The notes beneath the pieces are model-generated. The model was not told where the DNA came from, did not search any database, and worked only from the letters and a program-made list of their open reading frames with translations. 64,000 bases of DNA from Octopus vulgaris. Taxonomy: Eukaryota. Every line of letters begins with the position of its first letter. Within the stretch, counting starts at the first letter, position 1. Shown here one piece after another: positions 2,968 to 28,818 of the stretch. The position numbers were made by a program, and so were the translations under genes. The stretch covers positions 59,458,001-59,522,000 of the forward strand of contig OX597828.1 in the NCBI GenBank assembly GCA_951406725.2, read 5' to 3'.

Positions 2968-3070
2968 TATCTATCTATCTATCTATTTATCTATCTATCT
3001 ATCTATCTATCTATCTATCTATCTATCTATCTATCTATCTATCTATCTATCTATCTATCTATCTATCTAT
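2968..3070. repeat. (TATC)n array, 5' flank of Tx1 copy A
   Basis: Tetranucleotide array directly abutting the element 5' end. Confidence 0.98.
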
Positions 3071-3396
3071 CGACAGACGTATTGTCACATCGGCTCCGAA
3101 GGTAATCGTTTATTTTGATATTTATAGCCCATATTGTGTGTACATTTTTGTAAATAAGGTGTGTAAGGCACCCAACTTTCGTTTGAGTGCTTTTCCAAGG
3201 GAGGAATTCGCCCCTAGGGGCAGTTTCAAACCTATTTAATTTGCGTATTTTTCTTCTCGACATTAAAAAATGTCGAGAAATGTTATTGTAGAACGCTGGT
3301 CCTGTTCCTTTATGGACCAGCATTTTCCTAGACTTGAAACGCTAGGAGAAAAAAAGAACTTATGCACGCACACACATTCGACAAAGACAAACCTGA

Positions 3397-5202
3397 GTGA
3401 ACGCTGCAACCACTTGCGGTAACAGCCCTGTCACCACCACCACCACCACTAACAACAACAACAACGAGACTACTACTGCTACCACCACCACCTCCACCAC
3501 CACCACCACCACCACCACCACCACCACCACCACCACCACCAACATAAATGATAAAAATGAAACTCACGCGAATACTATTAACAAAAACAACAGCAAAAAG
3601 CAGAACAACAACAAAAATGAAATAAATATTTTACCATCTAATAGTGAAGATATTAATATAAAAGAATCAACAGCACCAGTAAATTTCGCTGACACTCTGC
3701 GTCAGAAAAAAGAAATAATAAAATTTACGAATGAAGAGTTGATAGAAACGAGAGCACTCTCTACAACCCAAGGACAGGATTTAGTGCTGCATACACCTGA
3801 ACACATAAAGGAACAAATAGAAAATAAGACAATTATATATAAAATTATAAGAAAAAACAAAACACAAAATGAATTGATTACAAAAACGGACATAGAAAAG
3901 TATTTAAAAAACATAATGAAAAAAAAGAATATATAAACTGGGGTCCCCAGTTTAATACAGTGGTGGTCCGCTTCCCTAACCAGGAAGTGGCAAAAGCTCA
4001 CTCTACTGAGTCTTTGCAAAATGATGAAATCATCATGGTCCCATATTACAAAGGCCAGATAGTGAGTACAATTAGCATTAAAAATGTACCCCCCGAGATA
4101 CCTAACAAATGGATAACAGGAGCGATCTGTTACCATTTGAAAACGATAAACATATTAGAAATTGGGGTGGTAAAACAATAGTAGTGACCATCCAGATTGA
4201 TGGGTCCTCTATCGAGAACCTACCTGATAGGATCCATTTAGAAAATGGGCAAAGTCTATATGTTGTAGCAGAAGGCAAAAAGCCAAGATGCTACAACTGT
4301 GGCAGCCCAGAACATTTAATTGCAAAGTGCGCACTGACACAGAAAAAACAAGAAAGAACAAATCAGAAAACAAATAAAAAACCTTTTTTGCCAACACCAA
4401 CACACTCAATTATGGAACAATGCCAAGAAAAACAACAAACCAGCAAACAAACTCCAACAACATCACCAAGATAAGAAACAGCACCAACACAATCACCGTT
4501 GACGTCGCAACCAATTCAACATACTGAACCAACAAAAGATAGACCAACACCAACACCGAGGACGACAACTAAAAAGACAGAAAACAGTGATTTGAAGACA
4601 AATTCTACCCCTAACACCACAACAATACAAACACCGCACAAAAGATCAACAATTTCTACAAGCATACATATTAACGCAAATGCTTTGCCTTTACCCCCTT
4701 ATGATTCGTCGGACTCATCGTCTAACGACGAAAGTTCAACGGAATGGCAAATAGCCACAGGGGGTAAAAGGAAAATATAAAAACGCCCACCAAACAAGTA
4801 AGTAAAGAAGGGAGATATTTAACTCCAGACAGCTTCCCCCTAGACAATCAAAAAATCAATGAACCTGCAAAACCACACACACAACTAACTGCAATAGACA
4901 CAGACAATAAAAAACTAATGGATTACATTACATCCAACACGAACATCTGTGAAGATGACTTTAAGACAAATAATCATCCGCGCAATACACCACCGAAACA
5001 CATAAGAATTGTACACATAACACAAACACAACACCATACACTGAAAACCATATTTCCAAATGCGGTAGGGGGGTTTCAACGATACGTCTCAAAAAAACTA
5101 TACAAACACCTCCACAAAGACACTACAAAAGAAGAAGAAAAAACTGAAACTTCGAAATGGGTAAGTGACCTTCCCTCTTGCCTCTTGTCTCTTCCAATGT
5201 AG
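3397..5202 (+). pseudogene. Tx1 ORF1 (gag-like nucleic-acid-binding protein), frameshifted
   Basis: Pieces in several frames: poly-Thr/Asn N-terminus, VVRFPNQEVAK segment, zinc knuckle CYNCGSPEHLIAKC (C-X2-C-X4-H-X4-C) and a Thr/Pro-rich region. Confidence 0.85.
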
Positions 5203-5234
5203 TGTGTGAAACACAAATTTCTTAAACGTCAATT

Positions 5235-25956: not shown

Positions 25957-27732
25957 ATGCTTAAATTAGGTTGTGTGAATGCGCGTGGCTTGGCGTCGGC
26001 TTGGAAACAAGGTTACCTTCTAAACGACATCAAGTCACTGAACGTGGATATAGTAGCTATCAGTGAAACCAGACTCAGCAAGCCGCGGGCCCTCGCGTCC
26101 ATGTTTGGCGATCAATTCGACATTTATTTTTCTCCCTGTCTGCCGAACATGGGTGGTGGTGGTACCGCGGTGCTTTTTCGAAGGAGTCTAAATGTAAAAG
26201 TAAGAACAATATTCCTAGACCCGGCGGGTAGGCTGGTTGTCTTGGACGTGGATGGCAGAAATGGGTGTGCATTCCGTCTGATGGCAGTTTATGCACCGTC
26301 CTTAACGGGTCAGGCGGATTTCTTCAGACGTCTAGTGGTTTTCCTGGCGCTTCTGTATATATTGACTCTCGAGCCGCTACTGCGGAAGCTGGCGACACTG
26401 AGGGGCATCCCACGGGAACTGGGTTGCGGGACGAGCGTGTCGGCATATGCGGACGATGTCACCGTCATAGTGTCGAGCGAAAAACACATCCAGATGATAG
26501 GCGAGACACTAAGAAAATACGAAACGGTGACGGGAGCGAAGATTAACCCGGAAAAGTCAGTGGGTTTGCTACGCGGCACCTGGAGAAGCAAGCCCATGCC
26601 GTCCGACTGCGGCTCAGTAGTGGGACGCTGGACGGACGGACCGGTTAAATTGCTCGGGGTGTGGTTCAGTCCGGACCTCCAAATGGATAAGAACTGGGAC
26701 GAGATCACGAGTAGAGTGGTCGCTCTCAGCCAAATATGGGCCGAGAGAAAGCTGTCTCTAAAAGGTCGGGCGGAGGTGGCGAACGCGTACATCTCATCCG
26801 TCATCGATTACCGCCTGACCGTCGTGCCTTGTCCCGACGCCACCATCACCAAACTGGAACACATAATCTTCCGCTTCCTGTGGAAGGGTGACGTTCCGAT
26901 GGTGAGGAAGTCCATTTGCTGTCAACATCCGTTGAATGGAGGACTGGGCATGCCGTGGTTGATGATGCACAGGCATTCGCTGAGACTGCGACATCTCTGG
27001 AACTTCATCGATGACGGTGAACAGGTGTGGGCGCCGTTTGTGAGGTGCACCTTCCCGCAGCTCGTCTCACTGACCGAACTGCAAACGTGGATCAAGAAGA
27101 GACCGAAACTGGGCGATTGGCACCGAGAGTGTCGCCAAGCTCTACAGCAACTCTGCCGACCGGGGTCAAACTTGTGCAACTTACACACGACTAAAGCGTT
27201 CTATAGAGGACTAGTGGAGGGGAGGTCCGACGACACACTCGGGGCAAACCTGGGTGTCGACGAGAAATTCCTAACTCGCCTGCTCAGGACGACGTTCGGG
27301 CCGGGGCCTATGGATTACTTCCAGAAATCCCTGGCTTGGCAATGCTATCGAGACGCACTACTTGTTCGAGAGAAGAGCTACAGGCATGGTTCGAAAACCA
27401 TCACCGGACCGACCTACTCGAGATGCGGTCAGAGCGACGAAACCGTTCTGCACGCGCTCGTGCAGTGTCCAGATATTTCAGAGCTATGGACCTTCGTCGA
27501 ACAGCTGTTGTCGCGTGTAGGACGGGCCGGCTTATCGGCCGAGTCTATCGTGAATATTGTTCCACCACCTTCCTTTAAACGGGAAGGGAAAACGATTTTC
27601 GTTACGCTGATGGCTATGGCGAAAGAATGTGTGTGGTGGACGCGTTTGAAAGGACTGCAAACAAACACCTTCCTCTCTGGTCAGTCTCAGGATGAGAATA
27701 GAGAGGAAGGCTTTGTCGAACGAATGTTTTAA
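25957..27732 (+). CDS. Tx1 ORF2 derivative, 591 aa (truncated APE fused in frame to C-terminal RT)
   Basis: Same motifs as copy A. Open until a ~32-bp deletion near 27688 shifts the last codons; the ancestral stop is at 27800-27802. Confidence 0.85.
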   Translation: MLKLGCVNARGLASAWKQGYLLNDIKSLNVDIVAISETRLSKPRALASMFGDQFDIYFSPCLPNMGGGGTAVLFRRSLNVKVRTIFLDPAGRLVVLDVDGRNGCAFRLMAVYAPSLTGQADFFRRLVVFLALLYILTLEPLLRKLATLRGIPRELGCGTSVSAYADDVTVIVSSEKHIQMIGETLRKYETVTGAKINPEKSVGLLRGTWRSKPMPSDCGSVVGRWTDGPVKLLGVWFSPDLQMDKNWDEITSRVVALSQIWAERKLSLKGRAEVANAYISSVIDYRLTVVPCPDATITKLEHIIFRFLWKGDVPMVRKSICCQHPLNGGLGMPWLMMHRHSLRLRHLWNFIDDGEQVWAPFVRCTFPQLVSLTELQTWIKKRPKLGDWHRECRQALQQLCRPGSNLCNLHTTKAFYRGLVEGRSDDTLGANLGVDEKFLTRLLRTTFGPGPMDYFQKSLAWQCYRDALLVREKSYRHGSKTITGPTYSRCGQSDETVLHALVQCPDISELWTFVEQLLSRVGRAGLSAESIVNIVPPPSFKREGKTIFVTLMAMAKECVWWTRLKGLQTNTFLSGQSQDENREEGFVERMF

Positions 27733-28089
27733 TAAAAAGTGGGTAAAAGTGGCAAAACTGGTTAGTATGAAAGACGACACTATTTCAAGCGTAAATCTGT
27801 AACCAAAAGAGACAATGAGAGGTAAGGTGACTTACTCATGTGTTCATTTTCGAACTGTCTGGGGTGACCTTGGTCTTTTTTGTAGGTTTTTCTTTCCAAG
27901 GCTACACCTAAACTGTGAACTTTATATATATATATTGCTTTTTTATACACCACACAACCCACAGATCCCTATTGATCGAACGTTTTTTCTTTCTGTGTCC
28001 CACCCATCCCACCTCGAAAAGAAAAAAACTCTACATTGTATTTCGTCCATTTTTCTTCTGTGTTTAGCCCTGTGGCCACAATAAAAAGT

Positions 28090-28818
28090 TATCTATCTAT
28101 GTATCTATGTATCTATGTATCTATGTATCTATCTATCTATCTTTCTATCTATCTATCTATCTATCTATCTATCTATCTATCTATCTATCAGTCTGTCTGT
28201 CTGTCTGTCTATCTATCTATCTATCTATCTATCTATCTACCTATCTATCTACCTATCTATCAATCTATCTATCTATCTGTATGTCTGTCTGTCTGTCTAT
28301 CTGTCTGGCTGTCTGTCTGTCTGTCTATCTATCTATCTATCTATCTATCTATCTATCTATCTATCTATCTATCTATCTGTCTGTCTGTCTGTGTGTATGT
28401 CTGTCTGTCTATCTGTCTGTCTGTCTTTCTGTCTATCTATCTATCTATCTATCTATCTATCTGTCTGTCTGTCTGTCTGTCTATCTGTCTGTATGTCTGT
28501 CTGTCTATCTGTCTGTCTATCTATCTGTCTATCTATCTATCTATCTATCTTTTTTTTTTTTAACACCCCCTCTTTTTTTTGTCCTCTTTCTCTTCTTTTA
28601 CGATCCCTTTTGATCGACCCCCCCCCCTTTTTTTACCTTCAAAAGAAAAGCTCTACCTTGTAATTTGTTCTATCTGTGTGCAGCCCTGTGTGGCTAATAA
28701 AGAAACATATCTATCTATCTAGCTATCTATCTATCTGTATGTCTGTCTGTCTGTCTGTCTGTCTGTCTATCTATCTATCTATCTATCTGTCTGTCTGTAT
28801 GTCTGTCTGTCTGTCTGT
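28090..28818. repeat. Compound (TATC)n/(TGTC)n array
   Basis: Direct reading; contains a truncated Tx1 3' end. Confidence 0.97.
28550..28707 (+). mobile_element. 5'-truncated 3' UTR of a sibling Tx1 family within the TATC array
   Basis: GATCCCTTTTGATCGA...AAAAGCTCTACCTTGTAATTTG...GCAGCCCTGTGTGGCTAATAAAGAAAC parallels the copy A/B 3' UTR GATCCCTATTGATCGA...AAAACTCTACATTGTATTTCG...TTAGCCCTGTGGCCACAATAAAAAG. Confidence 0.75.

Follow-up and report, generated by a model that had tools for sequence, protein, structure and literature searches.

Retrotransposons of the Tx1 clade include several families that insert into microsatellites. In the text available of one survey, the targets given are (TC)n, (TTC)n, (TTCC)n and (TTTC)n, and a family is treated as target-specific under Kojima's criterion when more than 20% of its copies are flanked by one type of sequence (PMC4494074). 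Kibi, which uses (TC)n, and Koshi, which uses (TTC)n, are teleost Tx1 families (PMC4494074; PMC3812793), and an earlier note on the DNA described here, made from its letters alone, was right to name them as microsatellite-specific members of the clade. Another source, as far as its available text goes, lists ACAY, AC, TC, TTC and TAA as targets and describes the mechanism of microsatellite targeting by elements with an apurinic/apyrimidinic (APE) endonuclease as poorly understood (PMC3812793). The available portions of two further papers add a (TG)n target and contain no GATA target (PMC4640811; PMC8869645). For Octopus vulgaris, 80 L1-Tx1 families have been counted in a paper whose accessible text does not use the word "target" (PMC13282606), and the accessible parts of two others hold nothing on Tx1 targets (PMC8967140; PMC12988792). 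Neither GATA nor TATC occurs in the main text of PMC4494074 to the extent available, and no GATA-specific Tx1 element was found in the accessible full-text literature, a search with Repbase and Dfam outside its range. A (GATA)n target for Tx1 is thus apparently undescribed. Here, a window of 64,000 nucleotides of O. vulgaris (the whole stretch analyzed: assembly GCA_951406725.2, contig OX597828.1, positions 59,458,001 to 59,522,000 of the forward strand) is described in which three copies of a Tx1-type element, called A, B, and C, lie in (TATC)n arrays. It is likely that they represent a family inserting specifically in (TATC)n by target-primed reverse transcription (TPRT), and that an intact partner element supplied the proteins that mobilized A and B.

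The junctions themselves are read directly from the window. TATC adjoins all six ends of A, B, and C, on the plus strand and in one phase (Table 1), which bears out the earlier claim that A and B have TATC at both ends in the same orientation and extends it to C. The 5' junction common to A and B is (TATC)n followed by GAC[A/T]GACG, and their 3' junction is AATAAAAAGT followed by TATC; the 3' junction of C is AATAAAGAAACA followed by TATC. C had been called a diverged Tx1-like 3' end in an array of the same orientation, and this is correct: its local alignment score with the 3' end of A is 63, against 42 for the best of 500 shuffles, indicating homology. A pattern derived from the 3' ends of A and C had three matches in the window and none in 100 shuffles, a count that is circular for A and C. 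Next to the elements the 5' arrays are pure, with 20 of 20 units being TATC before A and 18 of 18 before B. The 3' array of B is broken by its third unit (15/20 units TATC), and the two arrays of C hold 9/20 and 11/20 TATC units, a state that fits old genomic arrays rather than fresh tails. Outside the arrays, the flanks of A show no homology to those of B by self-BLAST, as the note had stated, and a segmental duplication was rejected on this ground. No target-site duplication (TSD) outside the arrays of A and B was evident on reading the flanks, where no systematic search was made. Within the window, three of three copies lie in TATC, with B and C sharing an array.

Such an arrangement is not expected by chance. 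With a qualifying site defined as 20 nt of TATC upstream plus 8 nt downstream, 0.23% of positions per orientation qualify, the elements' own arrays counted. If any simple repeat (4.2% of bases) is accepted as the site of the first copy, the chance of finding three copies in TATC is about 2e-7, or about 1e-4 when B and C are counted as one event because both adjoin one array. Arrays of AT, ACAT, and AC hold more bases than those of TATC, and A, B, and C adjoin them at no end. The sole TATC array in the window without an element (29810-30086) lies on the same strand as the others, and no run of (GATA)4 or longer occurs on the plus strand anywhere in the window.

Evidence from other insertions was sought in public sequence sets, which were aligned to copy B extended at its two ends by 20 and 12 nt of array. 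Two contig sets from two organisms (X2 and X16) covered all 30 bins of the element, and the raw-read sets X23 and X24 gave almost no depth on it. Among the 15 joints listed of 330, seven link the upstream array, with all 20 nt aligned, to internal positions of open reading frame 2 (ORF2); in a second listing (12 joints of 245), eight do so. Across X2 and X16, the array is joined on the same strand at 10 positions within 26830-27699, representing at least nine distinct points, and several of these joints carry 2-8 extra letters. By a rough estimate, array joints are 15-100 times commoner per unit depth than the joints found by the same detection route for a 532-bp insertion within B. TATC at the 5' junction of truncated copies had been named beforehand as the thing to look for, and it is seen in C and at the contig points, at least nine in number. 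Loose ends were examined as the best 24 of 2,183 rows, among which none lay at 23512 or 28089; few were expected, and this is not used as evidence. For X16, six loose-end rows located at repeats are left out of account. Additional copies with their flanks were sought, and there were none among 22 candidates in metagenomes (query P0001, the ORF2 protein of B), none among 92 in genome contigs, where the DNA pattern also had no match, and none among 78 in viral contigs. Six viral-contig matches to a 16-nt pattern were dismissed as chance, having no BLASTN match. When metagenomes were scanned with alignment A4, 34 distant loci came up, and no TATC or GATA array was seen at any of them.

The placement of these elements in the Tx1 clade, proposed in the earlier note, is borne out by reverse transcriptase (RT) trees. 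The principal tree held 29 rows (LG+G4), after exclusion of copy B and of rows that were redundant or on long branches; A and a further element of the window, D, cover just 200 and 137 RT columns in it, and the labels of the L1-like outgroup are our own. In this tree A and D group with an Argonauta element (P0212) and with P0211 (100/100), the 10-row clade that holds them is sister to the Xenopus Tx1 group (99/98), and two elements inserted in U2 small nuclear RNA (snRNA) genes branch apart. In a quick tree of 58 rows, the A/D group fell inside a 45-row clade with Xenopus Tx1 (Shimodaira-Hasegawa-like approximate likelihood ratio test, 95). Besides an RT grouping that excludes L1, the elements have an ORF2 of APE endonuclease (EN), RT, and zinc-binding parts and an ORF1 with a CCHC knuckle. 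The nearest proteins are unlabelled or partial at 67-72% identity, and an Argonauta hians protein stands at 59%, which makes an octopod host probable. A 61% relative of ORF2, P0213, was deposited as a protein of a Herbaspirillum metagenome-assembled genome and is probably host contamination.

Both larger copies have lost the enzymatic cores of ORF2, a loss that the note does not mention and that can be read directly from the alignment. P0001 aligns with full-length relatives of 1,150 amino acids at about 2-130 and 645-1085, giving an in-frame deletion of about 515 codons that is common to A and B and removes the catalytic half of the EN (the GDxN and SDH motifs) together with RT domains 0-4. 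The Pfam order that remains in P0001 is Exo_endo_phos (20-108), RVT_1 (132-236), and zf-RVT (457-511), the last below the cut-off, and zf-CCHC was found in ORF1 of both B and D. A and B are non-autonomous, neither encoding a complete endonuclease or a complete RT, and any target specificity must therefore come in trans. Splicing as the source of the deletion was unsupported by eye, since no acceptor AG would be expected before the join to the RT. An AATAAA signal sits 4 nt before the 3' junction in A and B and 6 nt before it in C, and there is no poly(A) tract at the 3' junction of any of the three. B also has private deletions of 345 bp and 32 bp, as well as the foreign 532-bp insertion, which is high-copy and extremely deep in X2 and X16. 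Judged by its ends, this insertion may be Helitron/HINE-like.

The window also holds element D, likewise absent from the note, which represents a sister Tx1 family with another site; in ORF2 its identity with A is about 70%. D is flanked by a perfect 15-bp TSD (35418-35432 and 39078-39092) and has no TATC, so that the TATC target characterizes the A/B/C branch and not the clade as a whole. D has its own deletion, which likewise fuses the N-terminus of the EN to the late part of the RT; two families in one window thus lack the same part of ORF2 through independent deletions. The ORF1 of D, the only one compared, resembles CCHC and ZCCHC3-like clusters (0.89-0.91), ZCCHC3 being linked with Tx1 ORF1. 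Blocks with TA runs lie on either side of D (35159-35392 and 39331-39510), nearly identical in direct (96%) and inverted (98%) orientation, and D may be nested in a non-autonomous DNA transposon in the way of Xenopus Tx1L.

A route to insertion can be proposed in which the nicking, priming, and trans-mobilization steps are taken from the known Tx1 and TPRT pathway. RNA of the element, polyadenylated downstream of its AATAAA, would end with a few UAUC units, and an intact partner would supply the ORF2 protein in trans. The APE endonuclease of the partner would nick the (GATA)n strand, probably at GATA/GATA, with the register being ambiguous within the unit. The freed 3'-OH would then prime reverse transcription at the UAUC read-through, and the absence of a poly(A) tract would follow from this. 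At the 5' end, joining would leave microhomology of 0-3 nt or a small number of additional bases, and a TSD, if there is one, would be hidden in the repeat. The suggestion of the earlier note that this is a sequence-specific family for the GATA tetranucleotide is supported by the same-strand, same-phase junctions and by the truncated copies in TATC.

Several points weigh against a family specific for (TATC)n. The note had placed three copies in TATC; all three do lie in arrays and in the same phase, but B and C share one array and are not independent sites. The target is not clade-wide, given the different site of sister D. No intact ORF2 of the A/B/C family was recovered, the nearest proteins being partial and 67-72% identical, and the 58-row tree did not resolve the A/D group as sister to Xenopus Tx1. 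The contig evidence also has its weaknesses. It has no denominator, as 4,090 contigs in X2 and 2,836 in X16 lie partly on the element, and truncation junctions without TATC could be many among the remaining loose ends and partial contigs. The depth of contigs with TATC may be inflated, favoring their listing, and summed depth is not copy number; the 532-bp control insertion may have a site preference that keeps it out of TATC, in which case the ratio is too high. Three joints recur between X2 and X16 and possibly stand for the same insertions, some joints may come from sister subfamilies (likeness 85%), and at 7 of 35 alleles checked A and B agree with each other and differ from nearly all contigs. 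A deletion after insertion, running from the array into a full-length copy, would also give the same joint.

Other accounts of these data were weighed. A wider history, in which an undescribed octopod Tx1 radiation switches targets quickly, is fairly unlikely but deserves mention. It would comprise a (GATA)n-strict branch with hundreds to thousands of copies, mostly EN/RT-deleted, moved in trans and partly aimed by UAUC, next to a 70%-identical sister on a 15-bp site. It is unlikely that the RNA is what mainly sets the target, with UAUC read-through pairing with (GATA)n at weakly specific nicks or breaks and the site of the source copy, not the endonuclease, determining where new copies land. 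The AATAAA 4-6 nt from the junction without a poly(A) tract, the fast switch implied by so close a sister as D at another site, and the loss of a working endonuclease from A and B would all suit this account; nevertheless, target choice in Tx1 is credited mainly to the endonuclease in publications, as far as their available text goes, and the clean 15-bp TSD of D is typical of endonuclease-initiated insertion.

The relationship between A and B bears on a third possibility, that there is weak or no preference for TATC and that local duplication or conversion between A and B, together with passive retention in repeat-rich DNA, has produced the pattern, the contig joints being a chance minority. 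The two copies are 86% identical in ORF1 and 98.5-99.5% identical over 5274-6073, a stretch that includes the shared deletion; more broadly, 4874-6073 and 25594-26795 are 95.5-99.5% identical. This mosaic points to conversion or recombination, and the 3' part of ORF2 is very deep in the contig sets, so that some TATC joints are expected by chance. However, the unrelated outer flanks stand against a local duplication, and the ORF1 differences, at 15, 11, and 30 for the first, second, and third codon positions, show a third-position bias that indicates two source lineages. C, in the same phase, makes a third lineage and is more diverged. The ORF2 differences are near-neutral (13 synonymous and 25 non-synonymous). 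A and B would thus appear to descend from two source lineages, with recombination or conversion having shared the ORF2 deletion between them, and a weak or absent preference for TATC is very unlikely. The least probable alternative is that a source transcript with a TATC leader and tail carried its arrays along, so that TATC flanks new copies anywhere: A and B do begin at the same base after a pure array and the window has a single free TATC array, but the array joined to at least nine internal truncation points in contigs argues against carried leaders or tails, C too has TATC upstream without a 5' end, the 3' arrays are degenerate or compound, and no TSD was evident beyond the arrays in the flanks as read.

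The positions of the features are collected in Table 1. Elsewhere in the window, 54016-54879 is a tandem repeat of about 97% identity with a 96-bp period composed of two 48-bp halves, and it has open frames on some strands. Rfam gave no match in the window.

Table 1. Positions of the Tx1-type elements, their parts and the adjoining arrays in the 64,000-nt window (position 1 is its first letter).
Feature	Positions	Strand	Remarks
(TATC)26 array directly before copy A	2968..3071	+	One unit is TATT
Copy A, Tx1-type element	3072..7397	+	5' UTR (untranslated region), broken ORF1, internally deleted ORF2, 3' UTR
ORF1 remnant of A	3270..4560	+	Approximate ends; frameshifts and stops, CCHC knuckle
ORF2 of A	5235..7110	+	N-terminal ~130 aa of EN joined in frame to RT domain 5 onward and zinc-binding C-terminus; fusion point near 5625; two in-frame stops near end
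AATAAA signal of A	7388..7393	+	4 nt before 3' junction
TATC array at the 3' end of copy A	7398..7598	+	Grades into compound TC/TA/TG microsatellite
(TATC)18 array directly before copy B	23440..23511	+	
Copy B	23512..28089	+	Layout and ORF2 deletion as in copy A
532-bp foreign high-copy insertion in B	24068..24599		
ORF2 of B	25957..27732	+	591 aa, P0001; fusion point near 26347
Degenerate TATC/TATG/TCTG array	28090..28549	+	Lies between B and C and flanks both
Copy C	28550..28707	+	158 bp, diverged and 5'-truncated; 3' end from a related subfamily
TATC/TCTG array directly after copy C	28708..28818	+	
Element D, sister Tx1 family	35433..39077	+	Own EN-RT deletion; outside TATC

If the specificity for (TATC)n is real, (GATA)n, a widespread tetranucleotide repeat, would join the short list of microsatellite safe harbors for site-specific retrotransposons, and microsatellite-specific Tx1 elements would reach an invertebrate lineage. 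It would also bear on GATA markers and on the turnover of arrays in such genomes. A/B and D are close sisters with different targets, which makes an endonuclease-swap test practical given intact copies; if the radiation with quick switching holds, the pair would be a natural experiment on target change in APE-type retrotransposons. The kind of system is well known, and the surprise is moderate. It is also quite possible, though not probable, that the A/B/C family has already been catalogued.

Among known systems, Kibi and Koshi are the closest in manner of insertion. Like the A/B/C family, they belong to the Tx1 clade, have an APE endonuclease, and insert in a short microsatellite; the comparison is by published target, no named Kibi or Koshi protein having appeared in the protein searches, and the unit is TATC here as opposed to TC for Kibi and TTC for Koshi. 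If the published units follow the sense strand, as is assumed, the primed strand would be (GA)n for Kibi, (GAA)n for Koshi, and (GATA)n for the present family. Because its flanking unit is TATC, the A/B/C family is regarded as working like Kibi but is not filed as Kibi. The crocodilian Tx1 families found in (TTCC)n and (TTTC)n (PMC4494074, from the text available) share a tetranucleotide target with A/B/C but use pure pyrimidine units and belong to a vertebrate lineage. Keno, which is specific for U2 snRNA genes, is another member of the Tx1 clade. On marine metagenome contigs, two Tx1-type elements end in U2 snRNA genes (L005:4675-4885 and L007:5815-5977) and are Keno-like by target only, and a third (L009:9202-9356) lies on a contig that ends in a U1 gene. 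The two U2-inserted elements form a separate branch, and their 3' junctions carry a poly(A) tract, which A, B, and C lack. Xenopus Tx1L (YTX2_XENLA, P0081) and Tx1-Mar resemble the elements of the window in having two ORFs and an ORF2 of EN, RT, and zinc-binding parts. They target DNA transposons, however, and are just 25-29% identical to the window elements; element D may work as they do.

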